NCBI GenBank assembly: GCA_017454765.1
Contig: JAFTCJ010000017.1
Location: 569 to 64,568, forward strand
Reading direction: 5' to 3'
Length of the DNA: 64,000 nt
DNA from: Erysipelotrichaceae bacterium
GTDB taxonomy: Bacteria; Bacillota_I; Bacilli_A; Erysipelotrichales; Erysipelotrichaceae
Shown here piece by piece: positions 6,374 through 30,448 of this stretch. The number at the start of each line of letters is the position of its first letter. Position 1 is the first letter of the stretch. A program made the position numbers and the translations under genes. Under the pieces are notes generated by a model. That model was not told the DNA's origin, did not search any database, and saw nothing but the letters and a program-made list of their open reading frames with translations.

Positions 6374-7027
6374 TCAGGAATCTTCCTGAATCAGTTCAAT
6401 GCCTTTGGCCAGATCGGGGATGACCCGGTAAGCTTTCTTCAGCGTTTCCTCTTCAATGATGCAGATATCGGGCACGACCACGCATCTGATGCCGGCATTG
6501 TATGCGGAAAGCAGTCCGTTCCTGCTGTCTTCAAAGACCAGCGCATCCTTTGCATCGACACCGAAATGTTCCAGCACCTTCAGATAGATCTGCGGGGAAG
6601 GCTTACTCTCGGATAGATCATTGCCGCAGATCATGTAATCGAAATAATCAGTTATCTTCACATCATCCAGCCTCTGCTGCGCCCGGTCCCGGTCGGTCGA
6701 AGTCGCAACAGCCATCAGGATCTTCTCTTTTTTCAGATAGTTCAGCAGTTTTCTTAATCCTTTTTTCACTTTGAACGGATGCTTTTCCAGATAAGCCTGA
6801 ACTTCTGCCCTCAGGTCTTTCTGATACGCCGGATAATCCAGATCGGGACAGCATTCGTGATAGATCTCTTCTGTCCTGATCCAGTTGACACCGATCGTTT
6901 CCATGACAAAATCACAGGATCTGATCCCGTATTTCTTCAGCACTCTTTCTGCACACTTCACATAGACTCTTTCCGAATCGATCATCAGACCGTCCATGTC
7001 GAAGATCACCAGTCTGATCCTGCTCAT
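6374..7027 (-). CDS. HAD-superfamily hydrolase (beta-phosphoglucomutase-like subfamily IA)
   Basis: LVIFDMDGLMIDSE (DxDG motif I) and FEDSRNG (motif IV region); 217 aa. Confidence 0.8.
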   Translation of the reverse strand: MSRIRLVIFDMDGLMIDSERVYVKCAERVLKKYGIRSCDFVMETIGVNWIRTEEIYHECCPDLDYPAYQKDLRAEVQAYLEKHPFKVKKGLRKLLNYLKKEKILMAVATSTDRDRAQQRLDDVKITDYFDYMICGNDLSESKPSPQIYLKVLEHFGVDAKDALVFEDSRNGLLSAYNAGIRCVVVPDICIIEEETLKKAYRVIPDLAKGIELIQEDS

Positions 7028-7507
7028 TCAGTCGATATGCCCCTTCAGCTGATAGGAATCTTCCGTATACTGCATGATCTCAAACCTGTTTCCGTCCGGA
7101 TCATGTAACCACATCTGCCAGGTCTCAGACGGTCCTTTGGAAGGCTGTGTATCCGGGATGAAACCTTTTTCTTCCAATTCTTTTTTCGTCTCAAAGATGT
7201 CATCGACCGTCAGGGAAAAATGAGAATATCCCAGTCTCCGATTCCATCCGACATCCTCTGTCTGATCCTCCTGTGCCGGGAAGAGCTCGATGAACTGTCC
7301 GTCTGCTATCTCAATGTAGACATTGAAGATCCCTTCCGGATCGCTTTCCGCTAGAGCCGCCATTTTCGGTCTGTCTGCCCTTCCTTTATATGACTTGTTT
7401 CTGACAACGATCTTTTTCCTGCAGCCGAGTCTGTTGCAGTAGAAATCGATCATCTCATCCATCTGTTTTGTGAAAAATGCGATATGCATCAGCTGATTGA
7501 ATTTCAT
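7028..7507 (-). CDS. VOC (glyoxalase/bleomycin-resistance/dioxygenase) family protein
   Basis: 159 aa with the beta-alpha-beta-beta-beta style signatures HIAFFT...FY and HFSLTVDD. Abuts the HAD gene with no gap. Confidence 0.65.
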   Translation of the reverse strand: MKFNQLMHIAFFTKQMDEMIDFYCNRLGCRKKIVVRNKSYKGRADRPKMAALAESDPEGIFNVYIEIADGQFIELFPAQEDQTEDVGWNRRLGYSHFSLTVDDIFETKKELEEKGFIPDTQPSKGPSETWQMWLHDPDGNRFEIMQYTEDSYQLKGHID

Positions 7508-15046: not shown

Positions 15047-15101
15047 CTTTAAATATATTTTACCAAAAAGAAAAGCACGTCCCCGTGCCATTCTTCAATA
15101 T

Positions 15102-15419
15102 TTATTTCTTCTTTTTCTTTCCTGCAGGAAGTTCGTCATACATCGCCTCCAGCAGCTTCATCAGAAATTCCCTGTCATCCACGTTGTCTACCGCCAGCAT
15201 CTCTTTGGCCCCTTCATAAGGCAGCTGTCTTTCGGCTTCCGGCATCATCTTTATTGCGGACTTTACCGGCTTTACCAGAAAGCGGTCGTCATAGATACCG
15301 CCGATGATCTTTCCTTTATAGTAGATGATGAATTCGCCCATCATCGGGCGATATGTCACATCATCCAGGAAAGACAGCTGTTCCAGAATGAAATTCAGAT
15401 ATTCAATGCTCGATGCCAT
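15102..15419 (-). CDS. TfoX N-terminal-domain-like small protein
   Basis: 105 aa. The pattern YRPMMGEFIIYYKGKIIGGIYDDRFLVK resembles the TfoX_N domain. Confidence 0.55.
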   Translation of the reverse strand: MASSIEYLNFILEQLSFLDDVTYRPMMGEFIIYYKGKIIGGIYDDRFLVKPVKSAIKMMPEAERQLPYEGAKEMLAVDNVDDREFLMKLLEAMYDELPAGKKKKK

Positions 15420-15447
15420 ATCTCTCTCCTTTTGATGTACTTATGAT

Positions 15448-16851
<1,404 letters not shown>

Positions 16852-17271
16852 TCACTGGATCGTCATCAGTACACCGATCGAAGCAATTATCAGTCCGATC
16901 GTGTTCATCATCGAAATCTTTTCTTTAAAAAACAAGACACCTACGATCGCCAGTATCACCATGACAGCCACCGACAGCAGCGGTGACAGGAGTCCGATCT
17001 TGAATCCGGAACGGTAGGCATAGATGAAACCGAGTTCATAGAAACAGACGATCAGTCCGATGATGGCGGAATAGATATTGAGCTTCTTCAGTTCTCCTGT
17101 GAAAGGCGTTCCTTTTGAAGTCAGAAAAAACAGGACGAAAGAAGTGACCATCGCCACCGCATAAGTGATCGTCATGGAAGCAAACGCATTGACATCTCCG
17201 TTGACCCTGTCTGAGAAGATCTTATAAAGACAATCCGCTGCTACCAGCATGAAAAACGAGATCCATTTCAT
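16852..17271 (-). CDS. small 4-5 TM membrane protein, single EamA-like (DMT) half-transporter
   Basis: 139 aa and very hydrophobic. Lies between EIIC and GH1, 9 nt upstream of GH1. Confidence 0.5.
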   Translation of the reverse strand: MKWISFFMLVAADCLYKIFSDRVNGDVNAFASMTITYAVAMVTSFVLFFLTSKGTPFTGELKKLNIYSAIIGLIVCFYELGFIYAYRSGFKIGLLSPLLSVAVMVILAIVGVLFFKEKISMMNTIGLIIASIGVLMTIQ

Positions 17272-17291
17272 AGATATTCCCCTTTTTTGAA

Positions 17292-17322
17292 GAAGACCGG
17301 CAGAACCAAACTGCCGGTCTTC
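17292..17322 (-). other. intercistronic 12-bp perfect stem-loop between EIIC and the DMT-like gene
   Basis: GAAGACCGGCAG-7 nt-CTGCCGGTCTTC. No U-run follows on the coding (minus) strand, so it is more likely an mRNA-processing or stability element than a terminator. Confidence 0.45.
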
Positions 17323-17351
17323 TGATTTCTGAGTATCAGATGAACTGCTGA

Positions 17352-18650
17352 CTATTCAGCTTCTTCTAAAACCTTCTGCTTATCGATGACCTTGATGAAC
17401 GGCAGATAGAACAGCGCGTCGACAACGATCAGGATCAGCACCAGGATCAGTGCCTTGAAGTCGACAGTGGCGATCAGGGCAGCGATCGGGCAGAACATGT
17501 TCCAGCCCGGATAAGAGACGGTCTTGCCGACGATGCCGGCTGCCATTGCCAGATAAGTCAGGATGCAGTTGAGCAGCGGAACACCGACAAACGGAACGAA
17601 CATGACCGGGTTCATCATCAGCGGAACACCGAAGATGATCGGTTCATTGATGTTGAAGAACGCAGGGATCAGACCCAGCTTGCCGACAGTCTTGAGCTGT
17701 TTTGACTTGCATAAGAACAGCAGGACAAATACAAGACCGAACGTTGCTCCGGAGCCGCCGATCATGATGAAGAACCACCAGAAGGGTTCTGTGATGATGT
17801 AAGGCAGCTGTGTGGTTGCTGTACCGGCTGTGTAAGCAGCGATGTTGGCAGCCAGAGCCGTTGCCCAGAAGGCACCCATCGGACCGGTAATGGCACTGTC
17901 GTGGATACCGAACCACCAGAATGCCATGACCAGGAATACCAGCAGAGCGCCGCCCCAGATGGAGTTTGTCGCTCTTAACAGCGGTTCCATGACAACGGAC
18001 ATCAGTGCCGGGAAGGTATTGCCTGTCAGCTTGACGACCAGTGTGTGCAGCAAAGCCATGACCAATAGAACGATGCCTGTCGGTACCAGCATGGCGAATG
18101 ATTCAGTCAGAGCCTCAGGAACGCCGTGGCCTTCCAGAGAGATATAGCCGACTTTCTTTTCCAGCAGCACTTTCAGCAGTTCGATCGCCAGGATAGCAGC
18201 GAAGATGGCAGCAAAGATACCGGTTCCGCCCATGTAGTCGAACGTCTTTCTCGTCTCGATACCGGATACGGCCAGGATCATGTAGGAAATAACTGCCAGG
18301 ATCGTCGGAGTGAAACCTTTCAGCTTATAGTGCTGAGACAGGAAATAACCGACACCCGCCGCAACGAACAGAGCGACGAATTCAAGACAGAAACGATAGA
18401 TCGCACCGACAGGCATACCTACGGCACCCGCCAGAGCGGACCAGCCCTTCATCAGCGAGCACAGGAATCCGGGTTCCATCGTCGTGTAATCCATAGGCGG
18501 TTCGATGATGACCAGAGCGAGAGAACCCAGCGTCATGAACGGAATGATGGACATGAACGTTCTGGAGATGGCTCTCAGGTGCCTCTGCTTCTCAACCTTG
18601 TCCGCCAAAGGGAACAGTTTCTGTTCCAGCCAAGCCGAAAACTTTTCCAT
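17352..18650 (-). CDS. PTS lactose/cellobiose-family EIIC permease
   Basis: ORF 17352..18713. Preferred start is MEKFSAWLEQKLFPLADKVEKQRHLRAI (ATG 18648-18650, RBS GGAGGC). This is a typical CelB/LicC-type N-terminus followed by about 10 TM segments. Confidence 0.85.
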   Translation of the reverse strand: MEKFSAWLEQKLFPLADKVEKQRHLRAISRTFMSIIPFMTLGSLALVIIEPPMDYTTMEPGFLCSLMKGWSALAGAVGMPVGAIYRFCLEFVALFVAAGVGYFLSQHYKLKGFTPTILAVISYMILAVSGIETRKTFDYMGGTGIFAAIFAAILAIELLKVLLEKKVGYISLEGHGVPEALTESFAMLVPTGIVLLVMALLHTLVVKLTGNTFPALMSVVMEPLLRATNSIWGGALLVFLVMAFWWFGIHDSAITGPMGAFWATALAANIAAYTAGTATTQLPYIITEPFWWFFIMIGGSGATFGLVFVLLFLCKSKQLKTVGKLGLIPAFFNINEPIIFGVPLMMNPVMFVPFVGVPLLNCILTYLAMAAGIVGKTVSYPGWNMFCPIAALIATVDFKALILVLILIVVDALFYLPFIKVIDKQKVLEEAE

Positions 18651-18686
18651 ATTAGCCTCCTTTTTCTTCTTGGAATCTGTAAAAGG

Positions 18687-18731
18687 AAAAAAGCCGTACA
18701 GACAAGATCCCATGATCTGTTACTGACAGGC
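18687..18731 (-). promoter_or_regulatory. imperfect long hairpin plus U6 in the EIIC 5' leader (possible attenuator/terminator)
   Basis: Minus strand: GCCTGTCAGTAACAGATC-ATGG-GATCTTGTCTGTACGGC followed by TTTTTT, about 35 nt upstream of the EIIC start. Confidence 0.35.
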
Positions 18732-18830
18732 GTTTCCTTATACTTACAGTTTAACTGACCACCTATCTTCCCGCAAGATGAAAGCAGGCCAACAGTGACA
18801 AAGAAAGCGAAACAGTAACAGAAAATTCAT

Positions 18831-18854
18831 ACAAAAACCGCAGTTTCGCTGCGG
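18831..18854 (-). terminator. rho-independent terminator after the lipoprotein gene
   Basis: Minus strand: CCGCAG-CGAAA-CTGCGG followed by TTTTT. Confidence 0.65.
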
Positions 18855-18879
18855 TATTTGTTCAATATGTTTTCTGATA

Positions 18880-19971
18880 TCAGTCTATGAGTTCAAAAGT
18901 ATCACCAGCCCTGCTCATGCAGATGTCGGTCTTCAGAACAAGCGTACTGTTGTCCTTCTTTTCAAATTCGATCAGCTTGACATCCGCTCCCGTGTAACCT
19001 TCCATCTGGGAGTTGTCATCCACGTGGCAGATATAGCCGTCGCTCTTTTTCTCATACCAGCCCTTGATCTGAGCCATACCGGAATAGACGTTCTCGGTGA
19101 ACGTGAAGGCACCGGCTGTATCAAAGACGACCTTCGGCAGATACTGTTCTGCCACATCGGTATCGGTTATGTAACGCCATGAGGAGCCCTTGTTGCCCAG
19201 ATTGTCACCCATCGGTACCTGCAGAGCTTCCGGGATCGATCCGTTGGCAGAGAAGACATCGCCCGTCATTGAAACACCCAGATCCGTCATCAGGATCAGC
19301 GTGTTCTCATCATAGATCTGGAACTCGATCGCCTTGACGTTCTCACCAAACGGCGTGCCTTCGAAATTCTTCATGACGATCATGTAGCCGTTTTCGATCT
19401 CATAGGTTCCGTTGGCTTCCATGACACCGAAATCCTCCATGTCGATCATCGTGCAGGAATTATCCGAACGCACTTCGAAGCTGGACTTGTTGGTGGAAGT
19501 CTGGGACAGATTGTAATACGTCGTATAAGTGAAATCGGAATTGGCGATCTGGCCGTGTCCGGTGGAACCCTTGACTTCCGTCGTCGAGAAAGTCGCTCCG
19601 TCCTTGGAACCTTCCAGGGAAGTTTTCAGGGTCATCGTATCCTCGTCCTGCAGTTCAAACAGGATCTTGGAATATTGGCCGACAGAGGATTCCTTCACGT
19701 TCAGCGTCACGACATTCTCGCTCAGTGACCACTCACCGGTGATGTCATAGCTGCCGTTGAAGAAATTGTCCGTAAAAACGAATGTTCCGTCCTTGCCGAA
19801 CCACACCTTGGAATGATTCTCGTTGCCGTAATCATCGATGGTGTTGTAGTAAGTCCTGCCGGCAATGTCGAACTTGTTTTCAGGTGTTTCTTCTTCCTTC
19901 TTGCCGCCGCTGCAGGCACAAAGCATCATCGCCATCACAAACAGCAGGAATATCTTCTTCATCATTTTCAT
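18880..19971 (-). CDS. lipoprotein with three internal ~110-aa repeats, unknown function
   Basis: ORF 18880..19977. The ATG at 19969-19971 has better spacing from AAAGGAGG. It has a signal peptide plus lipobox (LCAC). Three modules each end in a T(L/M).L(K/M)T(S/D).....(G/D)..F-like string. Confidence 0.7.
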   Translation of the reverse strand: MKMMKKIFLLFVMAMMLCACSGGKKEEETPENKFDIAGRTYYNTIDDYGNENHSKVWFGKDGTFVFTDNFFNGSYDITGEWSLSENVVTLNVKESSVGQYSKILFELQDEDTMTLKTSLEGSKDGATFSTTEVKGSTGHGQIANSDFTYTTYYNLSQTSTNKSSFEVRSDNSCTMIDMEDFGVMEANGTYEIENGYMIVMKNFEGTPFGENVKAIEFQIYDENTLILMTDLGVSMTGDVFSANGSIPEALQVPMGDNLGNKGSSWRYITDTDVAEQYLPKVVFDTAGAFTFTENVYSGMAQIKGWYEKKSDGYICHVDDNSQMEGYTGADVKLIEFEKKDNSTLVLKTDICMSRAGDTFELID

Positions 19972-19983
19972 AGCCATCCTCCT

Positions 19984-21819
19984 TTATCCGTTCTTTTTGT
20001 CGCTCAGAATATAATTGATCTTTTCCACGATCGCCTTGTCGGCGTCGCAGTAATAGACTTTCTTATCCGATCCGTATTCCTTAAACAGATCATTGACCAT
20101 TCTCTCGCAGTCATACAGTTCCTCATTGCTGACGATCGCCGGATGCAGTTTCAGCTCGGGATCGTTTGCCCGCCTGCCGTCATATTTCTTAATGATGGCA
20201 GCGGTCTGTTCCCTGTTGGCCTGACGCCAGCCATGCACTCTTTCATAAGCCGACCAGCGGTCATGTTCGGCATCCGCCATCTTCTGCAGATTCTTTTCAT
20301 CGGAAAGCCACTTTGTGATAAACTCTTCATCACTTAAGGAATCATCATCCTTGAAAGAGAGGATATATCTCTGCTTGAAGCATAAAGCCAGTGCTTCTGC
20401 AAAAGAAGCTTCCTGATTCTGATAACGGTAGAAACCTGTTTCTTCCAGTATCTTTTCCTGATCTTCCTCATCCTGTTTGGAGAGATAAGACAGGTGAACG
20501 CGCTTGGCTGCTTCCTCCAGTTTCGGAGTGATCAGCTTGCTGTAGGTGAAGAAAGACTTCGTCTCACCGAAGAGGATGATGTCTTCCTCTTTGATGATCC
20601 TGTGCAGGTCGCTGTTTTCGATGCGGCAGAAGATCTTCGGAGATTTGAGTTCCCTGTTTCTGGCCACCAGGTCGCGGCGGATCCGTGCAGCCGTCTCATA
20701 GGCTGCCTCATCATCCTCATAAAGGACGAAGACGATGTCCGGGTCGGGAAGACTGTCGAATGCATCACTCTCTTTTCCATACGGACAGTTGAAGACTTTC
20801 AGATCATAGCGGTCTCCTTCCGGTGCCTGTCTGCGGAATTCGTCATACAGAGCAGAAGCTTTGGGACCGATCATTGAGACGATCGGACTGCTCTCGGGTC
20901 TGATCAGCAGACACAGCAGGTCTTTGACGAAACCGATCGCCGCATCGCTGTCGCAGATCACTGCTGCATGGCAATCAGCCTTGGAAGCAGCCTCGTCCAT
21001 GCATAAGAACATGCCTTCGACTGCCAGGGAATGCTTCTCGTCGATGTGACGCAGGAAGACTTCATCGGCATACTGCTTGTCCAGATTCAGGATCAGCTCT
21101 CTCTGATCATCGCCCGCAAAGACTCTGACGATGACTTTCTTGGGATCGTAGTTCTTATGCTTCCTGACCCGATTGCAGAAACAGGCGGCCGTGACCACGC
21201 TTTCGTGATCATCCTCTTCCAGCATGTAGAACTCGTAGTACTTGTTCTTTTTCAGATGGATCTGATCGATCGTCGTATTCAGACACAGGGCATTCATCTC
21301 CCTGGCTTCATTCTTGAGATATTCGTCGCATTCTTCGCAGTTGCAGAATATCAGCATACCGCCGATCTTTTCATCGACGATGCTTCTGGCGATCATCATC
21401 GATCTTTCGTTTAAAGAAGAGAAGACGTGGAAACGTTTCTTGCCGAAGAAAGAGATCGCACTTCTTAATGTTGAGGAGAAAGAGAAAAGAAACATGGAGC
21501 CGGCCAGAGGACCGATGATGTAGAGGAAATAAAGAAAAGTCCTGTAAGCCAGAAATTCATTCCGTTCCATTTCCAGCTCATAGGGAATGCTGCCGTTGAC
21601 GCCCATGGCGATACCGGAAATACCGGCACGGATGGATTCAATGACGGCGATCGGCAGATCGTCATCCAGATGATAATACGGAAAGACCAGGACCGTGATC
21701 GCCAAAGACAGCGCAGCCGATAAAGCCAGTGTCCTTGAACGGAAATCCTCATCCTTGCCGAAGACACGCCATATTCCATACAGCGTGATCACAAATGCAG
21801 CAGCCATATATTTCCACAT
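19984..21819 (-). CDS. multi-TM protein with large cytoplasmic region ending in a RyR-like domain
   Basis: 611 aa with about 4 N-terminal TM segments. The C-terminal string AEHDRWSAYERVHGWRQ...KLHPAIVSNEELYDCER matches the ExxRW...GW...HPxlVpyeeL pattern of RyR (PF02026-type) domains. Its stop is 6 nt from the lipoprotein start. Confidence 0.6.
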   Translation of the reverse strand: MWKYMAAAFVITLYGIWRVFGKDEDFRSRTLALSAALSLAITVLVFPYYHLDDDLPIAVIESIRAGISGIAMGVNGSIPYELEMERNEFLAYRTFLYFLYIIGPLAGSMFLFSFSSTLRSAISFFGKKRFHVFSSLNERSMMIARSIVDEKIGGMLIFCNCEECDEYLKNEAREMNALCLNTTIDQIHLKKNKYYEFYMLEEDDHESVVTAACFCNRVRKHKNYDPKKVIVRVFAGDDQRELILNLDKQYADEVFLRHIDEKHSLAVEGMFLCMDEAASKADCHAAVICDSDAAIGFVKDLLCLLIRPESSPIVSMIGPKASALYDEFRRQAPEGDRYDLKVFNCPYGKESDAFDSLPDPDIVFVLYEDDEAAYETAARIRRDLVARNRELKSPKIFCRIENSDLHRIIKEEDIILFGETKSFFTYSKLITPKLEEAAKRVHLSYLSKQDEEDQEKILEETGFYRYQNQEASFAEALALCFKQRYILSFKDDDSLSDEEFITKWLSDEKNLQKMADAEHDRWSAYERVHGWRQANREQTAAIIKKYDGRRANDPELKLHPAIVSNEELYDCERMVNDLFKEYGSDKKVYYCDADKAIVEKINYILSDKKNG

Positions 21820-21886
21820 GATTTTTTCTTCTCCTTCTTATCCTTTTCTATATTATACACCGTGGCTGACAACAGACAGGGTCCCG

Positions 21887-21914
21887 TTCAAAATACTCCA
21901 AAATCCGATATAAT
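21887..21914 (+). promoter_or_regulatory. candidate sigma-70-type promoter of the TIR gene
   Basis: TTCAAA, 16 nt, TATAAT, about 40 nt upstream of the AAAGGAG RBS. A divergent TATAAT for the minus-strand operon lies at about 21851-21856. Confidence 0.4.
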
Positions 21915-21954
21915 GATTTTAGAAAGAAAACGAAGATTGTCAAAGGAGTCGCTT

Positions 21955-23991
21955 ATGGCAGAAAAAGTATTCATCAGTTATTCCCATCAGGACAGTTCCT
22001 GTGCCCAGGGCATCGCCCGCTATCTGGAAAGACACGGCTGTGAAGTCTGGATCGATTCACAGGATCTTTCTGTCGGCGAAAAATGGGCCAGCAGCATCGA
22101 AACAGCCTTAAGTGAAGCGGAAGTCGTCGTCGGTCTTCTTTCCTCATCTTCCCTGCGCCGGGATGAAGTGCTTAAAGAGATCTCTTATTCTCTGAAACGC
22201 ATGGAAGAGGAAGGAACGGAAAACTTCCGTGTCTTCTTTGTCGTCATCGGCCAGATCCATCCGTCCTGGTTCAAGGATGATGAAAGAGTCGATATGATCA
22301 GAAGATATCTGGGCCAATACCAGTATGTCGAACTCAGCGCCTATGGTGAAGTGACGATCGACGCGATGAAGAAACTGCTGTCAGCCATCCGTCACAAAGG
22401 CATCGAAGAAGGAAGTCTGAATCTTTCCTTAAGCAATCAGAACGGCTTCATCAACCAGAATTCCCTGCCGGAGAAGACCTTTGACAACCTGGGCAACAAC
22501 ATCTTCTATAAAGTATTCCCGGCCGACCTGGCTCCTTCAGCCGTCTATCCCTTTGCGATGGACAACCAGTGGCTGCCTGAGGTCTTCTATGACAGAAAGA
22601 GCGATCTTTCCAAGGCTTTTGAAAAAGAAGGTTTCACCTCAGCTCAGGTCCTGGAATACCTGACCGAATTCAAATGCCGCAATTTCATCCTGTCCTTCTT
22701 CCAGTTCAAACAGGTCGTCATCAAACTGAATACGATCCTGTATGAACCCTATTTCCAGAAACTCATTCAGACGGAAGATGCAGACAGGGACGCTTTTGTC
22801 AAACTGCTGGAAAACGGCAGCATTACCCTTCTGCTCAACAACAAGCAGATGACGCCTTTCCTGCATCACAAGAGCAGCAAACCTGATCAAGGCAGGATCG
22901 ATGAAGCCTGGAACGACATCTGCGATGATACATCCGTCTACTGCATCAGGGAAAACTGGGCATCGACATCCGATCAGCACAGCATGGACTTCTTAAGGTT
23001 CTGTTCCAACCTGGCGATGGACCACAACAATAATATCCTCCTGGCCCAGGCCATGCATCTGGACGAAAGCCAGATCAATGCTTTCCTGGTCACGTTGAAG
23101 ACCATCTCCATGCAGGCCTTCTGTCAGACACACATGAACGGCACCCAGGCCCAGGACAAAGTCGATGACTACAGCCGCACCCTCTTCTATGAGAATTACA
23201 TCGTCAGAAACGGCGATGAGAATATCGAGGATGCGGTCTACAAGTGCCGCTTTGATCAAAACAAACCGTTCCATCACGAACTCAAGCGCCTGATCGATAT
23301 CTACTATAACTCCATCTTCTGCAACACCCTGCAGTGTGATGCCCTGTTACCGGATGATCTTCGTCCCGAGAACTATTACCTGCATTCCCTGTACATCTCC
23401 AACGGCGAGAAAGAGGTCAGTATCGAGGAACTGCAGTATGCCTTCTCCGAATTCTTCGCGAACTGCGAAGTCCTGGATGAGATCGAAGCGATCGGTTCCA
23501 ATCTCTATCTGGAAAACTGGGATCTGACCAGAGTCGTTGAACTCAGGGACAAGGAAGCCTGGTATGAATATGTGGAACTCCTGGAAATGATCAACCGCCG
23601 TTCCAATCTCTGGAAAGTCGATTTCAATGAAATAGAACTCTTATTGCAGAGACTTCTGAGATGTTTCGACGAGAGACCGGACAAGGCAGCCGACAGGGAT
23701 ATCGCCTGCAGTTTCCGTGTCATGGTCGGATCGAAAGTACTGGATATCGTCAAGACAAACAAAGTCTCCAAGATCAAGGAATACGGCGGATCCTATGCCG
23801 ATCCGGGCAAGATCCCTCTCAAAGTCCTCTTCTGTGTCGGAGACCTGACCAGAGAAAACAGGAAAGACATCATCTTCCTGCCGGTCACTCTTTTTGACGG
23901 AAGGATCGATACTTCCGACGGAGACGGTTTCTTCAACAAACTCAAGGAATTCATACTGAAACAGTGTGACTTCGTTCTGATCAATCAGTAA
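21955..23991 (+). CDS. TIR-domain protein (N-terminal ~140 aa) with an unassigned ~530-aa C-terminal region
   Basis: ORF 21862..23991. Preferred start is MAEKVFISYSHQDS (ATG 21955, RBS AAAGGAG). The TIR_2-like pattern is FISYSHQD...GCEVWIDSQDLSVGEKW...AEVVVGLLSSSSLRRDEVLKEI. I recognise nothing in the rest. Confidence 0.8.
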   Translation: MAEKVFISYSHQDSSCAQGIARYLERHGCEVWIDSQDLSVGEKWASSIETALSEAEVVVGLLSSSSLRRDEVLKEISYSLKRMEEEGTENFRVFFVVIGQIHPSWFKDDERVDMIRRYLGQYQYVELSAYGEVTIDAMKKLLSAIRHKGIEEGSLNLSLSNQNGFINQNSLPEKTFDNLGNNIFYKVFPADLAPSAVYPFAMDNQWLPEVFYDRKSDLSKAFEKEGFTSAQVLEYLTEFKCRNFILSFFQFKQVVIKLNTILYEPYFQKLIQTEDADRDAFVKLLENGSITLLLNNKQMTPFLHHKSSKPDQGRIDEAWNDICDDTSVYCIRENWASTSDQHSMDFLRFCSNLAMDHNNNILLAQAMHLDESQINAFLVTLKTISMQAFCQTHMNGTQAQDKVDDYSRTLFYENYIVRNGDENIEDAVYKCRFDQNKPFHHELKRLIDIYYNSIFCNTLQCDALLPDDLRPENYYLHSLYISNGEKEVSIEELQYAFSEFFANCEVLDEIEAIGSNLYLENWDLTRVVELRDKEAWYEYVELLEMINRRSNLWKVDFNEIELLLQRLLRCFDERPDKAADRDIACSFRVMVGSKVLDIVKTNKVSKIKEYGGSYADPGKIPLKVLFCVGDLTRENRKDIIFLPVTLFDGRIDTSDGDGFFNKLKEFILKQCDFVLINQ

Positions 23992-24017
23992 AGGCTGCCG
24001 AAGCAGCCTTTCTTTTA
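23991..24017 (+). terminator. rho-independent terminator after the TIR gene
   Basis: AAGGCTGC-CGAA-GCAGCCTT followed by TCTTTTAT, starting right after the stop codon. Confidence 0.75.
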
Positions 24018-24037
24018 TATTCATTGAGATAACAGAT

Positions 24038-25768
24038 TTAATCTTTATCGACCAGATCCGAAACTACTTCAACGATATCCTTTGCTCCGCTGATACCGGC
24101 GCTGTGTTCATGGGCACCTGCCTCCTTGTCGACAGCTCCCTTGATGGAATCGATGTCATCCACCAGACCGGCAACGGATGCGACTGTATCCAGACCGAGA
24201 ATCGAAGCAATATCGGAAATGATGGTGGCCGTCTCACTGACACCGATCTCTTCGCTTTCCAGCGTGGACTTGATGTCCTTTCCGGAAGTGTAGACATCGA
24301 TGACCTTGGAAACACCTGGGATGCCTAAAAAGTCAGCGACAGCTCCGATGTTGCTTAAAGATTCATCGGACTTGATATCCGGTTTCAAAATCGGCAGGAT
24401 GAACTTCATCAGGATCTCGTTTTTCTCTGACCCGTAAGGAAGATAGTTGACGATCATCTTGTCCTTAATGCGATTGTCGAGCTTTCTCTTGTGATCCTTG
24501 ATGAACTCATCAGTCGTCACGACAGCGACATCTGTTTCTGCCAGAGCTTCTTTCTTCTGTTTCAGGAGCTCTTCATATCTTTCTTCACTTAAAACATCAA
24601 TAATAACCAGATCAGGTGAATCCTCTTCCACCTTTTCTTCGATCTCACCGTTGTCACAGGTACTGATGACAAGGTGTTTCTTACTCTTCAGTACATTCAC
24701 AAGATCTTCATCCTTGCTGGCGACAAGGATCGACTTGTCTTCAATGGAAGGTTTCTCAAACTCTTTCACTTTCTTGGCCGCCTCTTTCAGCAGCTGTGCC
24801 GCCTTGCGTTTTCTCAGATACATCCACAGACCGCCTAATACAGCAGCGATACCTGCACCTCCCACCGCAATGATAGGTGTCGGATCTTTTCTTGCCAGAA
24901 CATGAGAAAGCACATGGCCGCAGTAATAGCAGGTCTTTGTTTCAAGACCCTCTTCCAGATAACTGGGTTCTTTCTCCAAAGTCCACTCCTTGGGATACTT
25001 ATGTCCGGCTGGCAGGATCTTTTCTTTCCATGATTCTCCGCAGCGCTTACATAACGCTTCTCTTTCGCCTTCTTCTTCACAGGTCGGAGCTTTGAGAATG
25101 GTGTATTCCAGATCATGACCTAAAGCAGGATAGATGTCATCGACTACCATTCCGCAGCGTTTACAGGTTCCCTTCTTGTATCCGTCCTCCGTACAGGTAG
25201 CTTCTTTTTCATCATATTCGATATCATGACCGAGAGCTTCTATGGTTTTGGTATAGCTCTTATCACATCTGGTACAGGTATATGTCCTGACACCGTCTTC
25301 CTCGCAGGTCGCTTCCTTAGTGACTTTGGATTTATAGTTATGGCCTAAGGCTGCGATGGTTTCCGTATAACTGTCTCCGCAGCGCGAACACTCAAACAGT
25401 TCTGTTCCGGTCTCGGTGCAGGTCGCTTTTTTTGTGACTTTTGATGTATAGCTGTGACCGAGTGGAGGAGCATAAACGGTGCCTCCGTTATAAGGAGAGT
25501 TGTCCTGCATCGTGTGCGCGGCAGTATTATAACAGTATACTTCCGCATAGCTTCCTTCCGTACAGGTCGGAACGTTACTGGAAATAAAACTATACTGTAA
25601 CGGCTGGCCGCACCATGGACAGTTTCCGAAATCATAAGCATTTGCTCTGTGCACATGAACATGAAGAGGTTTTTCATAGTCTTCGTGCTCTTCATCATGA
25701 AATACCGCAAACGATATGCTGCTGAACACCAAAAGGAATATAACAATCTTAATTAATTTCTTTTTCAT
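24038..25768 (-). CDS. single-pass membrane receptor-like protein, paralog A
   Basis: 576 aa. In order it has: a signal/anchor, the His-rich stretch FHDEEHEDYEKPLHVHVH, about five C-x9-C-x2-C-x12-H repeats, a TM (IIAVGGAGIAAVLGGLWMYL then RKRK), a receiver-like cytoplasmic domain and an acidic conserved tail. Confidence 0.75.
   Translation of the reverse strand: MKKKLIKIVIFLLVFSSISFAVFHDEEHEDYEKPLHVHVHRANAYDFGNCPWCGQPLQYSFISSNVPTCTEGSYAEVYCYNTAAHTMQDNSPYNGGTVYAPPLGHSYTSKVTKKATCTETGTELFECSRCGDSYTETIAALGHNYKSKVTKEATCEEDGVRTYTCTRCDKSYTKTIEALGHDIEYDEKEATCTEDGYKKGTCKRCGMVVDDIYPALGHDLEYTILKAPTCEEEGEREALCKRCGESWKEKILPAGHKYPKEWTLEKEPSYLEEGLETKTCYYCGHVLSHVLARKDPTPIIAVGGAGIAAVLGGLWMYLRKRKAAQLLKEAAKKVKEFEKPSIEDKSILVASKDEDLVNVLKSKKHLVISTCDNGEIEEKVEEDSPDLVIIDVLSEERYEELLKQKKEALAETDVAVVTTDEFIKDHKRKLDNRIKDKMIVNYLPYGSEKNEILMKFILPILKPDIKSDESLSNIGAVADFLGIPGVSKVIDVYTSGKDIKSTLESEEIGVSETATIISDIASILGLDTVASVAGLVDDIDSIKGAVDKEAGAHEHSAGISGAKDIVEVVSDLVDKD
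24900..25470 (-). repeat. in-frame ~37-codon repeat array (ATCxExG-x5-CxRC-x9-ALGH) in paralog A, about 5 copies
   Basis: For example ATCEEDGVRTYTCTRCDKSYTKTIEALGHDIEYDEKE followed by ATCTEDGYKKGTCKRCGMVVDDIYPALGHDLEY. Confidence 0.8.
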
Positions 25769-25831
25769 ATGACATCGCTCCAGATAATATTATTTTCTCA
25801 CAAACAAGAAACCAATTGGGATGTTTTGAGT

Positions 25832-25862
25832 CAATAAAGGAAAGGCTGCTTCTGCAGCCTTT
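25832..25862 (-). terminator. hairpin/weak terminator between the two paralogs
   Basis: Minus strand: AAAGGCTGC-AGAA-GCAGCCTTT followed by CCTTTATT. Confidence 0.5.
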
Positions 25863-25891
25863 GGTATTTGTGTAATGCTGATTTGTTTTTA

Positions 25892-27685
25892 TCAGTCTTT
25901 GTCGATCAGATCCGACACTACATCAACGATATCCTTTGCGCCGCTGATGCCGCCTTTATGCTCATAGGCACCGGCTTCTTTATCTGTTGCAGCTTTGATG
26001 GAATCGATATCATCCACAAGACCAGCCACAGATGCAACGGTATCTAATCCAAGAATTGATGCAATATCTCCGATAATTGTAGCTGCTTCACTTGTACCGA
26101 TTTCTTCACTCTCCAGAGTAGCCTTGATATCTCTGGCGGATACATAGACATTGATGACTTCGGAGATGCCCGGAATGCCTAAGAAGTCTGCCGCTGCTCC
26201 GATATTGCTTAAAGATTCATCGGACTTGAGATCCGGTTTCAGGATCGGCAGGAAAAACTTCAACATGACCGAGATCTCATCCGGTTTATAAGGAAGATAA
26301 TTGATGATCGTCTTATCCTTGACACGGTTGTTGAGTTTTCTCTTATGATCCTTGATGAACTCGTCTGTCGTCATGACGGCGATGTTCTGCTCTGCCAAAG
26401 CTTCCTTCTTCTGTTGCAGAAGCTCGTCATATCTTTCTTCACTTAAGACATCCATGATGATCAGATCAGGTGAATTTTCTTCTGCCGTTTCCTCAATCTC
26501 ATCATCTTCACAGGTACTTACTTCAAGGAAGGACTTGTTCTTGAGTATAGCCAGCAGATCTTCATCCTTGCTGGATACAAGAACGGATTTATCTTCAAAA
26601 GAAGGTTTCTCAAATCCTCTGAGTTTCTTTGCCGCTTCCTTGACCAGCTGTGCCGCTTTACGTTTCTTCAGATACATCCAAAGACCACCGCCTACGACCG
26701 CAGCGGTTCCGCCTGTTGTTACAACGATGGGAGCCGGGCTCTTCTTTGCAAGAATATGGGAAAGAACATTTCCGCAATAGTAACACGTCTTCGTTTCCAG
26801 ACCCTCCTCTGTATAAGAAGGCTCTTTCACAAGCGTCCACTCTTTCGGATACTTATGGCCTGCGGGAAGGATCTTTTCGTTCCATGTCTCGCCGCAACGC
26901 TTACAGGCAGCCTGACGTTCCCCTTCTTCTTCACAGGTCGCGGCTTTCAGTATGACATATTCAAGATCATGACCTAAAGCAGGATAGATGTCGTTCACTT
27001 CTTTGTTACATCTCTTGCAGGTTCCTTTCTTGTAACCATCTTCCGTACAGGTAGCTTCTTTCTCTTCGTATTCGATATCATGACCCAGGGCTTCGATTAT
27101 CTTGGTATACTCTTTTTTACATCTGGAGCAGGTATAAGTTCTTTCGCCTTCTTCTTCACATGTCGCTTCTTTGGTGACCTTGCTTTTATAGTTATGGCCT
27201 AAAGCTTCTACGGTTTCCGTATATGAATTACCGCAGCGGGTACATTCATAGTAATCCTCTCCGGATTGAGTACAAGTGGCTTCTTTAATGACCGTCTTGT
27301 TATAACTGTGACCTAAAGCAGGGATAGTCGTCTCACGCGGTTCTTCACAGCGGCTGCATCTTTCATGCCTTATTCCGTTTTTTGTACAGGTTGCAGGCTC
27401 TTCAGTTAACGTAAAATAGTCATGACCTAACGGGGGAGTTGTACCTGAGAACGAGTAGCCGCAACTGTCGCATACAGCAGTGAATGCCCCTGATTCGATA
27501 CAGCCGGAGTTATATCCTGTTGTAACTACCATTGTTCCTGTAGTACAACTTGGACACGTACCATATACATCTCCTGCCTCGTATGCATGCACATGGTGAT
27601 GAAGCTCTTCATCATGAAATGCAGCATAAGAAAAACTTCCGAACAGCACGATGAATATCAATAATTTGATAAAAACCTTTTTCAT
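25892..27685 (-). CDS. single-pass membrane receptor-like protein, paralog B (one extra repeat)
   Basis: 597 aa with the same architecture as paralog A. The N-terminus reads FHDEELHHHVH, there are about six Cys/His repeats, and the C-terminal 300 aa are nearly collinear with A. Confidence 0.75.
   Translation of the reverse strand: MKKVFIKLLIFIVLFGSFSYAAFHDEELHHHVHAYEAGDVYGTCPSCTTGTMVVTTGYNSGCIESGAFTAVCDSCGYSFSGTTPPLGHDYFTLTEEPATCTKNGIRHERCSRCEEPRETTIPALGHSYNKTVIKEATCTQSGEDYYECTRCGNSYTETVEALGHNYKSKVTKEATCEEEGERTYTCSRCKKEYTKIIEALGHDIEYEEKEATCTEDGYKKGTCKRCNKEVNDIYPALGHDLEYVILKAATCEEEGERQAACKRCGETWNEKILPAGHKYPKEWTLVKEPSYTEEGLETKTCYYCGNVLSHILAKKSPAPIVVTTGGTAAVVGGGLWMYLKKRKAAQLVKEAAKKLRGFEKPSFEDKSVLVSSKDEDLLAILKNKSFLEVSTCEDDEIEETAEENSPDLIIMDVLSEERYDELLQQKKEALAEQNIAVMTTDEFIKDHKRKLNNRVKDKTIINYLPYKPDEISVMLKFFLPILKPDLKSDESLSNIGAAADFLGIPGISEVINVYVSARDIKATLESEEIGTSEAATIIGDIASILGLDTVASVAGLVDDIDSIKAATDKEAGAYEHKGGISGAKDIVDVVSDLIDKD
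26758..27433 (-). repeat. in-frame ~37-codon Cys/His repeat array in paralog B, about 6 copies
   Basis: For example ATCTQSGEDYYECTRCGNSYTETVEALGHNYKSKVTKE followed by ATCEEEGERTYTCSRCKKEYTKIIEALGHDIEYEEKE. Confidence 0.8.
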
Positions 27686-27800
27686 GTGAAGTACCTCTCT
27701 ATTTTATTTTCTCATAAATAAGATGATTTCATCTGCCTTTTGCAGCTTATCTTACAAAAACAGCGATTCTGTAAAGTATGTCTTTCGTCAATTATGTTTT

Positions 27801-27829
27801 TTGCTTATTAACACGATGGCCTATATAAT
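27801..27829 (+). promoter_or_regulatory. candidate promoter TTGCTT-17 nt-TATAAT placing the transcription start at the ATG of the PnuC-like gene (leaderless)
   Basis: The -10 ends 6 nt before ATG 27836. There is no Shine-Dalgarno sequence upstream of that ATG. Confidence 0.45.
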
Positions 27830-27835
27830 ATTGAT

Positions 27836-29062
27836 ATGCCTGAAAAGACAACGAAATACATTGAGAAAAACAGAACTGTAAAAATGATTGAGATCATTTC
27901 TCTGATCCTTTTAATCTTTGTTTCTGCTTTCTCTGTGTTTTCAGGCTACCGTAAGATCCATTCCGATCCGGGTGAACCGGATTATATCGGAACCGCCGAA
28001 ATGACCAGGGATGATTCACTGGAAGACTATGATGAGGATTCCACTGTCTGCGATGTCGTCTATGTGAACGGAGATGACAGACTGATCGTCTCTTATCCGT
28101 ATGAAGAATACATCGATCTGGATCAGGAAAAGATCACGGCTTATCAGTATCAGAGCGAAGACGGAACAGCTCTTTTCTTTGACCGGAAGGATCCGGATAT
28201 CAGTCAGATCAGAAAGACTTATCAGACGATCAAAGCCGAAGAGACGATGCCTTTATTCAATCTGGGCAACGGCTTGCTGATCGTGGCATTATCTCTGTTC
28301 ATCGTTCTGTTCTGGTCAGGCTTCTTCACAACATATGAAAAGGTCTGGTTTTTGTCCATCATGGCGCTGGCGACTGTTGTCTCTGTCCTCTTTCCAGAAG
28401 AAAGCGCCAACGGCGTCAACGGCATCGTCATTATGCTGCTGTATCTGCTGGATACCTTCCTCAATATCCTGTGTGAACTGCTGATCTCCAAACAGTCCCG
28501 TTACAATTTCCTGGTATCAGTTGCGGTCGAGATCTGCGAGATCGCAATCTGTCTGGTTCTGATGTACCGCTTTGCGACGATGGCCACGACTCTCTTCTTC
28601 TGGCTGCCGATCGATATCCTCAGTTTCATCAACTGGAGCAGGCATAAAGATGATGTGGAGGAAGAACTGACGGCTGTCAGAAGACTCAAAGGCTATCAGG
28701 AAGTACTGATCATCCTGGCGATCATCGTCTGGACGCTTGTTGTGGGTTATTTCTTAAGCGGGCTCAATATCAGGACCGACTTCTTCGCCGGAAACAAAGA
28801 CCTGGAGACCATCGTCAGCTACATGGATGCCTGTGCTTCGGCAGTCGGCGTGGCCAACGGTCTATTCATCTTCTTCCGCTTAAGAGAACAGTGGATCGCC
28901 TGGTACATCTGCGCCCTGCTGGAAGCCATCATCAACATCATCACCGGGCAGTATGTACTGCTGGTATTGAAACTGGGTTATTTCACCAATACCACCTACG
29001 GTTACATCAGGTGGAGCCGCTATATCAGGACACACAAGGAAGCGGAAAAATCATTATTGTAG
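27836..29062 (+). CDS. PnuC-like nicotinamide riboside transporter family protein with ~140-aa N-terminal extension
   Basis: The C-terminal 260 aa show a PnuC-like pattern (WLPIDILSFINWSRH ... LREQWIAWYICALLEAIINI ... YGYIRW). The N-terminus adds one TM plus an acidic extracytoplasmic segment. Confidence 0.65.
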   Translation: MPEKTTKYIEKNRTVKMIEIISLILLIFVSAFSVFSGYRKIHSDPGEPDYIGTAEMTRDDSLEDYDEDSTVCDVVYVNGDDRLIVSYPYEEYIDLDQEKITAYQYQSEDGTALFFDRKDPDISQIRKTYQTIKAEETMPLFNLGNGLLIVALSLFIVLFWSGFFTTYEKVWFLSIMALATVVSVLFPEESANGVNGIVIMLLYLLDTFLNILCELLISKQSRYNFLVSVAVEICEIAICLVLMYRFATMATTLFFWLPIDILSFINWSRHKDDVEEELTAVRRLKGYQEVLIILAIIVWTLVVGYFLSGLNIRTDFFAGNKDLETIVSYMDACASAVGVANGLFIFFRLREQWIAWYICALLEAIINIITGQYVLLVLKLGYFTNTTYGYIRWSRYIRTHKEAEKSLL

Positions 29063-29126
29063 GTCATTGATTCACAGATATAAAATTTGATAAAATATTC
29101 AAGTACAAAAAAAGGAAGAAATTATT

Positions 29127-29684
29127 ATGACAATCAGAGCAGGAGATTTTAAAACAGGTTTGACATTATTAGTTGACGGCGATCCCTGGCAGGTCCTGGA
29201 TTTCCAGCACGTAAAACCGGGCAAAGGCGCAGCCATTCTGAGGACCAAGATGAAGAACCTCAAGACCGGTGCGACTCAGGAAAGAAACTTCAACGCATCT
29301 GTTGAATTCGAATCAGCCAATATCGAAAAGAAGGCCGTCAACTTCTCTTATGAAGCAGACAACACCTACTATTTCATGGATATGGAAACATTTGAGACCT
29401 ATGAGCTCAGTGAGGAACAGATTGGTTTCAACAAGTACTTCATCACCGACGGACTCGGCGTTCAGCTGATGATGTTTGAGGGTGCAGTCCTTACCGTATC
29501 CCTTCCGGCAAACGTCAATCTGGTCATCACGGATACCACTCCGGCAATCAAGGGTGCTCCGGGATCCCAGACCAAGGATGCGATGACCGAAACAGGCCTG
29601 TCCATCAGAGTCCCGCAGTTCATTGAACAGGGCGAAACAGTCGCTGTTTCAACGGAAGACGGCAAATACGCAGGAAGAGCTTAA
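29127..29684 (+). CDS. efp: elongation factor P
   Basis: 185 aa. Contains FQHVKPGKGAAILRTKMKNLKTG, the conserved EF-P loop with the modified Lys. Confidence 0.95.
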   Translation: MTIRAGDFKTGLTLLVDGDPWQVLDFQHVKPGKGAAILRTKMKNLKTGATQERNFNASVEFESANIEKKAVNFSYEADNTYYFMDMETFETYELSEEQIGFNKYFITDGLGVQLMMFEGAVLTVSLPANVNLVITDTTPAIKGAPGSQTKDAMTETGLSIRVPQFIEQGETVAVSTEDGKYAGRA

Positions 29685-29701
29685 AAAGCTCTTTTTACTA
29701 T

Positions 29702-30448
29702 ATGAATAAAACCGTACTTATCACCGGTGCTGCCGGCGGGATCGGAAGCGCAATCGCCAGAGAACTGGCGGAAAACGGATACGACATCGCGCTCAATTAC
29801 TGTCATTCCAGAGACAAAGCCCTGCAGCTGCAGGACGAGATCATTGAGAAATATCATGTCAGATGCATGGCGATACAGGCTGACGTCTCAAAGGAAGATG
29901 AAGTCGATACTATGGTCTCTGAAATCGAAAAAGAGATGGGTCCTGTTGATATCCTGATCAACAACGCAGGCATCGATCTGCCCAATCTCTTTGATGAGAA
30001 GAATGCCGAAGAATTCAGAAGAGTACTTGATGTCAATGTCGTCGGTGCCTACAATTGCGCAAAAAGGGTATCGAAACACATGATCGATTCCCGTTACGGA
30101 AAGATCATCAACATCACCTCCACCAACGGCATCAACACCTACTATCCGATGTGCTTCGACTACGATGCATCCAAGGCAGCTCTCATCTCCCTGACCCACA
30201 ACCTGGCGATCCAGTTTGCGCCTTATGTCAATGTCAACGCGATCGCTCCGGGTTTCATCGGGACAGAAAAAGAACTGGAAGGATATGACGAGCAGTTCCT
30301 GAAATCGGAAACAGAAAAAATACTGTTACGCCGATACGGAGAGCCTCAGGAAGTCGCTCACCTGGTCAGGTTCTTAATCAGTGAGGAGGCATCCTATATC
30401 AATAACAGTATTATCAGAATCGACGGAGGTCAGACAGGAAGCATCTAA
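29702..30448 (+). CDS. SDR-family oxidoreductase (FabG-like)
   Basis: TGAAGGIGSAIA (cofactor loop), NNAG and the YDASK catalytic YxxxK. Confidence 0.85.
   Translation: MNKTVLITGAAGGIGSAIARELAENGYDIALNYCHSRDKALQLQDEIIEKYHVRCMAIQADVSKEDEVDTMVSEIEKEMGPVDILINNAGIDLPNLFDEKNAEEFRRVLDVNVVGAYNCAKRVSKHMIDSRYGKIINITSTNGINTYYPMCFDYDASKAALISLTHNLAIQFAPYVNVNAIAPGFIGTEKELEGYDEQFLKSETEKILLRRYGEPQEVAHLVRFLISEEASYINNSIIRIDGGQTGSI

Follow-up and report, generated by a model that had tools for sequence, protein, structure and literature searches.

A conserved divergent gene pair of a TIR-domain protein and a membrane protein with a divergent RyR/R12-type domain in Erysipelotrichaceae: a possible Thoeris-like signalling module

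This work deals with a block of five genes (18880-27685) in a stretch of 64,000 nucleotides of DNA from an Erysipelotrichaceae bacterium, an uncultured organism of animal gut or rumen metagenomes (GenBank assembly GCA_017454765.1, contig JAFTCJ010000017.1), which as a whole is called the window here. The block encodes a lipoprotein, a membrane protein of 611 amino acids (aa), a TIR-domain protein that we call TIRX and two Cys/His-repeat receptors, and an initial annotation had regarded these genes as one functional island. Comparison of related loci shows that the five-gene block is not one unit. Its conserved core is the divergent pair of the 611-aa gene and TIRX, to which a third gene is often but not always joined, and the rest was added at the species level. 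We give roughly even chances to the interpretation that this pair is a two-gene Thoeris-like module, in which a signal produced by TIRX would be sensed by a ryanodine-receptor (RyR)-type domain of a channel-like effector, all functional steps being inferred from domain architecture and gene linkage. The features of the core pair are the following:

19984-21819, minus strand: core gene 1, the 611-aa membrane protein, in which four transmembrane (TM) helices are followed by tandem RCK-like lobes and, at the C-terminus, by a RyR/R12-like domain
21454-21819, minus strand: N-terminal membrane region, residues 1-122, four predicted helices
20530-21441, minus strand: tandem Rossmann/RCK-like region, residues ~127-430, with alternating beta-alpha elements in the AlphaFold2 (AF2) model, supported by Foldseek and by TrkA_N matches in relatives
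20005-20298, minus strand: RyR/R12-like putative nucleotide-binding domain, residues ~508-605, from hhalign, BLASTP and a seed hidden Markov model (HMM)
21820-21954, no strand: divergent control region of 135 nt between the 611-aa gene and TIRX
21955-23991, plus strand: core gene 2, TIRX, 678 aa with an N-terminal TIR domain
21955-22404, plus strand: TIR domain of TIRX, from TIR_2 (PF13676) and fold match
22177-22179, plus strand: codon of the putative catalytic Glu75 of TIRX
22447-23988, plus strand: conserved C-terminal region of TIRX of ~510 aa, without Pfam or PDB match

The open reading frame (ORF) of TIRX opens at GTG 21862. Since all homologues begin with 'MAEKVFISYSH', which corresponds to ATG 21955 in the window, the latter is taken as the real start. 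The N-terminus of TIRX is matched by TIR_2 (PF13676) with 74.9 bits against a cut-off of 28 (E 9.8e-21, residues 1-~115), and the remaining ~530 aa beyond this match are unannotated. In the AF2 model (predicted local distance difference test, pLDDT, 84.7) residues 1-~150 match TIR structures of TLR, plant NLR, SPARTA and AbTir proteins with target-normalised TM-scores of 0.6-0.7 in Foldseek. Residue E75 is invariant in 26 TIRX homologues. Its counterpart in the alignment with the bacterial TIR protein 7uxr and with Cat1 is likewise a Glu, at the position of the catalytic residue. The C-terminal ~510 aa contain the conserved motifs PFALDNQWLP, CIRENW and YYNS and have no match in Pfam, NCBIfam or PADLOC scans, nor in the Foldseek search against the PDB, which recovered the TIR domain only; to assign a sensor role to this region is a guess. 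Full-length TIRX homologues range from 100% down to 32% identity, with 58-77% in Erysipelotrichaceae and 32-44% in Lachnospiraceae, Oscillospiraceae and other Clostridia.

The 611-aa protein itself has no match in Pfam, NCBIfam and PADLOC scans, and searches of PDB sequences with the protein and with its family profile gave no meaningful match. The protein belongs to a large unnamed family, for which an exhaustive profile search with a limit of E<=1e-3 collected 1,717 cluster representatives that mostly are 600-700 aa long and align over their whole length (611-family; its genes are also referred to as channel-family genes in the following). The AF2 model (pLDDT 87.7) predicts four N-terminal helices (H2-21, H26-52, H55-71 and H86-122 by DSSP), of which the fourth continues into the first RCK lobe, and a helical C-terminal domain. 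Two prolines of the membrane region, P47 and P104, are conserved across the family. The best matches of the model in a Foldseek search against the PDB are Slo1/BK, Slo2.2, the DMI1 gating ring and MthK, with an E of 3.7e-4 and a probability of 1.0 for Slo1. TrkA_N matches were obtained in 14 of 60 relatives scanned and not in the window protein itself. From the Foldseek matches and the TrkA_N matches in relatives, the protein has the arrangement of tandem RCK (TrkA_N-type) lobes following a membrane domain that characterises RCK-gated channels. A K+-selective channel was ruled out, as a filter motif is missing. A Foldseek search of the model against viral structures (BFVD), aimed at phage RyR proteins, was swamped by Rossmann-fold matches.

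For the C-terminal domain, a seed alignment was built from nine bona fide RyR domains, namely that of a protein encoded at the locus L011 and those of eight phage proteins. Comparison of the C-terminal family profile with this seed gave an hhalign probability of 96.5% (E 7.7e-10), and the window protein matches the RyR protein of L011 directly in BLASTP (E 5e-6). The seed HMM finds the domain with E<1e-3 at the C-terminus of 44 of 185 family proteins and in 20 of 80 metagenome family members, and the Pfam RyR model PF02026 matches 2 of 60 relatives (best E 8e-4). Taken together, the sequence profiles indicate that the C-terminal domain is a divergent RyR/R12-type domain. The label 'RyR-like' given to the protein in the initial annotation was thus recovered, although only by profile-profile comparison and via relatives. 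Full-length Foldseek searches of the model were dominated by the RCK region, also where the R12 fold was to be compared.

Phage proteins with RyR domains bind 2'/3' cyclic ADP-ribose (cADPR) at nM affinity or cleave it and in this way defeat Thoeris (PMC13232231, 2026 preprint). In the structure of the phage glycosidase RyDEP with 3'cADPR, the residues H75, W78 and H100 contact the ligand (PMC13232231). They align with H519, W522 and H559 of the 611-aa protein; within the family W522 is invariant, and each of the two histidines is conserved to at least 90%. At the catalytic-acid position, D117 in RyDEP, the window's clade has N576, a near-invariant Asn, a sister clade of the family (P0137-P0152) has Asp, and the residue is variable elsewhere; of the RyDEP-type catalytic dyad of His75 and Asp117, only the His is therefore present (H519). 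In addition, the domain carries an insertion of ~16 residues. Because His, Trp and His are kept and Asn replaces the catalytic Asp, the RyR-like domain probably binds the signal rather than cleaving it.

It could nevertheless be proposed that this domain is a module for removing or buffering the signal, similar to the phage RyDEP glycosidases and sponges, and that the real effector is encoded elsewhere. The RyR-domain proteins characterised to date do degrade or sequester 2'/3'cADPR (PMC13232231), standalone RyR genes of ~95 aa accompany many members of the 611-family, and the Asp in the sister clade would fit as well. However, the near-invariant Asn in the window's clade speaks against such a role, a mere sponge would hardly be expected to be fused to a conserved TM and RCK apparatus of ~500 aa, and beside TIRX no other effector-like gene is conserved in this clade, which makes a buffering function quite improbable.

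The linkage of both genes was studied at 35 loci of TIRX homologues, which were searched with the window proteins and HMMs, and the window's clade was defined by a TIRX identity of at least 70%. Wherever upstream DNA is available, which applies to 10 related loci (Erysipelotrichaceae/Solobacterium; L005/28, L016, L017, L018, L019, L021, L022, L029, L031), TIRX is directly preceded by the 611-aa gene in divergent orientation. Together with the window, these loci represent at least five different flanking contexts, and the outer flanks of the pair differ between contexts on both sides. One context extends from phosphotransferase system (PTS)/regulator genes to PnuC-efp (window and L031), a second from methyltransferase-HAD-redoxin genes to DUF349-PTE (L005, L018, L029), a third flank set is shared by L019 and L022, and L017 and L021 account for the further context or contexts. 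A receptor orthologue follows directly downstream of TIRX in L005/28, L016, L020, L022, L029 and L031; it is displaced by 2 kb by two inserted biosynthetic genes in L018 and by 5.4 kb by a GH1/EIIC cassette in L019, and it is absent in L017 and, as far as the 2.2 kb downstream of TIRX in L021 show, from that locus too. The triple of 611-aa gene, TIRX and receptor recurs in three contexts, each with other genes to the left and to the right. A lipoprotein gene and a second copy of the receptor belong to the arrangement in the window species and in its closest relative, L031, only; in L027 a lipoprotein-family gene also lies beside TIRX, in another arrangement. The comparison of co-occurrence and synteny that had been suggested as a check of the functional island therefore retains a part of it: the 611-aa gene and TIRX are always together in the clade, the other three genes vary, and a five-gene unit is not supported.

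The association extends beyond this clade. A channel-family gene lies immediately upstream of the TIRX homologue in L032 (A4 HMM E 4e-94) and in L011 (A4 HMM E 1e-11), in which the TIRX homologues have 35-42% identity. Furthermore, five 611-family members were sampled at ~20-35% identity and their loci inspected; in three of them (L103, L104, L109) the channel-family gene is followed by TIR proteins that are unrelated to TIRX outside the TIR domain, and four (L103, L107, L108, L109) are flanked by a standalone PF02026 RyR gene of ~95 aa. A metagenome scan for the 611-family with a 10-sequence alignment yielded 80 loci. Relatives with 25-40% identity have TIR genes, standalone RyR genes or both as neighbours, and a TIR gene is present within 4 kb in 17 of the 25 metagenome loci with at least 3 kb on both sides. 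The usual place of the TIR gene is 18-180 bp downstream on the same strand, as in 24 of the 64 loci in which the sequence continues for 500 bp or more behind the 611-family gene. The TIR ORFs beside 611-family genes in these metagenome loci encode 145 to 1,285 aa, and outside the TIR domain these partners differ strongly from one another.

A separate observation concerns 611-family loci without a TIR gene, in which the family is paired with double-AAA+/Peptidase_M41 (FtsH-like), DUF4062 or protein-kinase proteins (L127 7772-11311; L135 7470-10976; L133 7287-9808; L123 2869-4468; L116 2020-5832; L124 1928-5992). In pairing with many TIR proteins and also with AAA+/protease or kinase proteins, the 611-family shows the pattern of an effector that is shared among changing partners for sensing or for generating the signal.

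The simplest alternative, that the genes are unrelated neighbours without a functional link, might be derived from the fact that the five genes of the block are arranged in separate transcription units or operons with terminators of their own and that TIRX occurs without the other genes in some clades. For the 611-TIRX pair this view is effectively refuted and we regard it as extremely unlikely, since the adjacency is seen in every one of the 10 related loci across at least five contexts and recurs at ~20-35% identity with different TIR partners and in most of the fully flanked metagenome loci (17/25). The rarity of TIR signalling systems, which are present in only ~8% of genomes (10.64898/2025.12.03.692087), further weighs against chance adjacency.

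We propose the following sequence of events for the pair; what was directly observed is which domains the proteins contain, that key residues are conserved and that the genes are linked in many genomes. TIRX would be an NAD+-consuming TIR enzyme, with its conserved C-terminal region as the likely trigger-sensing part. Upon activation it would make a signal derived from ADP-ribose, most plausibly a cADPR isomer. The 611-aa protein would act as receiver and effector in one, with the C-terminal RyR/R12-type domain binding the signal, and ligand binding would act via the tandem RCK 'gating ring' to open or disrupt the four-helix membrane part, so that ion flux or the integrity of the membrane would change. 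As to its biological role, such a system would most likely provide a Thoeris-like defence against phages or in other conflicts. More tentatively, and with less confidence than we would need to call it probable, the whole 611-family may be regarded as widespread bacterial ligand-gated channels, in which a RyR/R12-type domain would sense a cADPR-type nucleotide made by a TIR protein and gate an RCK-controlled pore. On this more tentative reading the family would be a prokaryotic counterpart, possibly the evolutionary source, of the animal cADPR-ryanodine-receptor axis, and the RyR-domain decoys and glycosidases of phages would find an explanation.

Several findings weigh against the proposed two-gene module. 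We infer the enzyme product, the ligand binding, the ion conduction and the role in immunity. On the side of the RyR-like domain, the seed HMM reaches only E 0.013 on the window protein, and PF02026 gives no match on residues 453-611 even at E<=10. On the side of the membrane part, the TM-scores of the model to Slo1 are low (0.34), Ion_trans_2 matches 0 of 60 relatives, no selectivity filter is recognisable, and the loop that joins helices 3 and 4 (residues 72-85) is without a TVGYG-like motif and varies within the family. Because both the filter motif and an Ion_trans_2 match are missing, the label 'channel' refers to the predicted architecture alone, and ion conduction is an extrapolation from it. 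In respect of the linkage, neither a channel-family gene nor the receptor is found within 10 kb in the sister TIRX clade with 61-65% identity (L023-L027), most TIRX loci of Clostridia have an Inositol_P-family gene as partner instead of a channel-family gene, and the pair is divergent in the window but co-directional in distant relatives. Finally, TIRX identity tracks taxonomy, so that the gene looks vertically inherited, the neighbours of the block in the window are housekeeping genes without a defence island, and PADLOC recognises only the TIR domain, leaving the 611-aa partner without a match.

Thoeris systems are the closest functional comparison. Thoeris types V, VII and X pair TIR proteins with membrane or 'ion channel' effectors, and a preprint of 2025 reports that Thoeris types with such effectors were validated and that TIR proteins can make canonical cADPR (10.64898/2025.12.03.692087). 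The pair in the window resembles them in that a TIR protein with a Glu at the catalytic position adjoins, as a conserved pair, a protein that joins a putative nucleotide-binding domain to a membrane part, and in that the effector family recombines with many different TIR proteins. It differs in that TIRX is, with 678 aa and a large C-terminal region, much unlike the short ThsB, that the putative sensor is of RyR/R12 type instead of SLOG, Macro, SLATT, DUF2270 or DUF6650, that the genes are divergent whereas those of Thoeris form one operon, that the locus lies outside a defence island although some distant relatives reside in conflict-type islands, and that PADLOC finds no system at the window locus. 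For type X Thoeris, in which the 'ion channel' effector is ThsK, tblastn with two published ThsB sequences gave no significant match, neither in the window nor at any of the loci L001-L189.

With the phage RyR proteins (RyDEP glycosidase and sponges; PMC13232231) the 611-aa protein shares the PF02026-type R12 family and the ligand-contacting His, Trp and His; in contrast to them it is host-encoded, carries the domain at the C-terminus of a membrane/RCK protein with the ~16-residue insertion, lacks the catalytic Asp (N576) and would serve signal reception and not immune evasion. RCK-gated channels such as MthK, Slo1/BK, Slo2 and CASTOR/POLLUX/DMI1 have the same succession of a membrane domain and two Rossmann-type RCK lobes and are the best structural matches of the model, and relatives of the protein match TrkA_N. 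The 611-aa protein has neither a TVGYG-type filter nor Ion_trans_2, it carries an extra RyR-type domain, and with only 8-13% sequence identity to these channels and low global TM-scores it is a predicted channel only. The coupling of a TIR protein, as in SARM1, to a membrane protein with an R12-type domain is genetically reminiscent of the eukaryotic cADPR-RyR axis and suggests a bacterial version of it. Eukaryotic RyRs are, however, Ca2+ release channels of ~5,000 aa with six TM helices and tandem R12 repeats and without homology to the 611-aa protein outside the R12-type domain, and direct cADPR binding to RyR R12 in eukaryotes is itself unproven. In the literature, we found no description of a host-encoded RyR-domain or RCK membrane partner of TIR proteins, and searches on RyR with conflict systems and on Thoeris with RCK likewise gave no description of this system.

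The remaining features of the block and its flanks are as follows:

18880-19977, minus strand: lipoprotein gene, 365 aa, signal peptide with Cys
23990-24011, no strand: bidirectional hairpin terminator common to the convergent TIRX and first receptor genes
24038-25768, minus strand: first Cys/His-repeat receptor gene, 576 aa, single-pass
25892-27685, minus strand: second receptor gene, a tandem paralogue, 597 aa, single-pass
17352-18713: PTS EIIC gene, flank on one side
27836-29062, plus strand: PnuC-like gene, flank on the other side
29127-29684: efp, beyond the PnuC-like gene

An ORF check of the window found all five genes of 18880-27685 where the initial annotation had placed them, and the divergent arrangement of TIRX with the 611-aa and lipoprotein genes across 135 nt (21820-21954), as well as its convergence with the receptor pair, for which the hairpin at 23990-24011 is shared by both strands, held equally. 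Promoter-like sites are present on both strands of the 135-nt spacer (minus strand: TTGACA/TAAAAT at 21943..21916, 11/12; plus strand: TTCAAA/TATAAT at 21887..21914, 10/12); they are matches to a sigma-70-like consensus only, and they overlap back-to-back. The lipoprotein gene starts 6 nt downstream of the 611-aa gene, and because of this spacing both are probably co-transcribed. The reported lack of an integrase, a transposase and flanking repeats was confirmed by family scans, by the contig gene calls and by a repeat search: neither integrase nor transposase was found in family scans of the five genes or among Pfam-annotated genes of the same contig, no flanking repeats were found at the block, and the base composition of the block does not deviate. 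A recently transferred island was ruled out on account of the missing repeats, integrase and compositional shift.

The two receptors are 66% identical to each other and, according to their alignment, have CxxC...GH repeats outside the cell, a single TM helix and, on the cytoplasmic side, a domain that is conserved. No match beyond weak noise was found in Pfam, NCBIfam and PADLOC, and the family profile gave only weak zinc-finger and receiver-like noise against the PDB. Two repeat pairs, I1 (23990-24018 / 25834-25862) and D12 (25787-25809 / 27701-27723), surround the genes; I1 contains a near-identical inverted copy of the terminator hairpin at 25841-25862. The copy of the hairpin that follows the second receptor shows that a tandem duplication took place, which comprised the receptor gene, its terminator hairpin and its upstream region. 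Two copies are also present in L031 and a single copy in the other species. Receptor paralogues with 43-50% identity occur in unrelated neighbourhoods without TIR. The receptors are a clade-specific, dispensable accessory that possibly acts as a modulator or provides an extra input.

In residues 1-289 of the receptor (window 24902-25768), ~6-8 repeats of ~32-38 aa follow a His-rich stretch, with the consensus ATCTxxGxxxYTCSRCxxSYTxxIxALGHxY, and no Pfam family covers them; the extracellular part looks like a string of small zinc-ribbon modules.

The lipoprotein has DUF4488 as its sole Pfam match (28 bits against a cut-off of 27) and is a recent add-on to the pair. Separately, L027 encodes a lipoprotein of the same family with a Big_2 insert (6301-7404, minus strand), which is convergent to a 61%-identical TIRX without a 611-aa partner, a second, weak hint of a link between this lipoprotein family and TIRX.

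The initial annotation had interpreted the block as envelope sensing coupled to a TIR effector. In such a model the envelope proteins (receptors, lipoprotein and 611-aa protein) would sense an event at the envelope and activate TIRX as the effector, which would kill or arrest the cell by NAD+ depletion. Many bacterial TIR proteins indeed are NAD+-depleting effectors, for example those of SPARTA and TIR-SAVED, the best PADLOC matches of the TIR domain are of this NAD+-depleting type, and SPARTA is among the Foldseek matches. Furthermore, four of the five genes encode envelope proteins, and most loci of the clade have the receptor gene beside the pair or not far from it, so that envelope sensing retains some support. 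Since the domain type of the 611-aa protein binds TIR products, this protein is instead to be placed downstream of the TIR protein, and since members of its family occur together with a variety of unrelated TIR proteins, or with partners other than TIR proteins, the suggested wiring is probably the wrong way round. Moreover, the receptor and the lipoprotein are dispensable, the former being missing from L017 and L021 and the latter from most loci, and receptor paralogues are found apart from any TIR. We consider TIRX as an envelope-triggered terminal effector unlikely.

The PnuC-type nicotinamide-riboside transporter (27836-29062, plus strand), which has a ~200-aa N-terminal extension, lies directly beside the TIR block. 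The PnuC-efp-SDR-Met-gamma-lyase block is independently syntenic in the window, L031 and L017. PnuC was ruled out as a member of the system, the PnuC-efp-SDR block being syntenic by itself and absent from most TIRX loci. Because of this independent synteny its adjacency to a putative NAD+-consuming enzyme is probably historical, a link to NAD replenishment being a less likely alternative. An Rfam scan of 18000-30000 gave no match, and thus no NAD+ riboswitch upstream of the PnuC-like gene.

The same wiring of TIRX and the 611-aa protein could also serve a housekeeping function, in which an NAD-derived second messenger made by TIRX would control an RCK-type ion transporter and so help to maintain ion, osmotic or NAD homeostasis. 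Nucleotide-dependent regulation of K+ transport is the normal task of RCK domains, and such a function would be in line with the apparent vertical inheritance of TIRX (58-77% identity in Erysipelotrichaceae, 32-44% in Clostridia), with neighbours such as efp, ATP synthase and uvrAB in the window and in L008/L013/L030, with the absence of mobility genes and of a compositional anomaly and with the PnuC-type transporter that adjoins in three species. This last point loses weight, as PnuC-efp is syntenic by itself and most loci are without it. Distant channel-family members are located in conflict-type neighbourhoods (L103; L011 with TIR, TPR and WD40 genes) and the channel family is also paired with AAA+/M41 protease and kinase proteins; the pair has moved among at least five genomic contexts, and the high variability of the non-TIR parts of the TIR partners is typical of immune sensors. 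In our estimate a housekeeping role is rather unlikely, and we favour the Thoeris-like module.

If this module exists as proposed, it would represent a new and abundant class of effectors for TIR signalling with more than 1,700 sequence clusters, mostly in gut/rumen Firmicutes, and it would give a host-side meaning to the RyR domain, whose use by phages against cADPR signals was shown only in 2026. It would be a tractable bacterial model of an R12-type domain that couples a cADPR-like ligand to ion flux, a question that is open for animal RyRs. The analysis also flags two further combinations: that of TIRX and a gene of the inositol monophosphatase family, and that of channel-family genes and AAA+/M41 proteases or kinases. 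Should the proposal prove wrong, what is left is nevertheless a gene pair that is strongly conserved in a little-studied family of bacteria.

As to the first of these combinations, TIRX is followed by an Inositol_P-family gene (inositol monophosphatase (IMPase)/CysQ-like) in 7 of 7 Clostridia loci (L008, L011, L013, L030, L032, L033, L035), and the gene is absent from the Erysipelotrichaceae TIRX loci. Its product could be a signal-processing or signal-removing partner of TIRX; no literature on a TIR-IMPase pair was found.

The standalone RyR genes encode ~93-98 aa and adjoin channel-family genes, often with a TIR gene as the third member (L103 12208-12492; L107 2470-2751; L108 8052-8330; L109 206-502; L011 12783-13076). 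The one in L011 matches PF02026 with E 3e-37. These genes are host-encoded counterparts of the phage RyR sponges and glycosidases. The context of L103 includes DO-GTPase2/GAP1-N2. In L011, the most distant TIRX locus, the regions 13082-22022 and 3894-6797 encode TIR-FGE-sulfatase and TIR-WD40 proteins, two TPR proteins and a bpMoxR/VWA pair, and this locus lies in a conflict-type island.

Two receptor paralogues without TIR (L190/L191 7001-8593; L192/L193 7001-8680) both lie near GAF-ABC_tran and FtsX/MacB-type transporter genes, which hints at a separate association of the receptor family with genes of these types.

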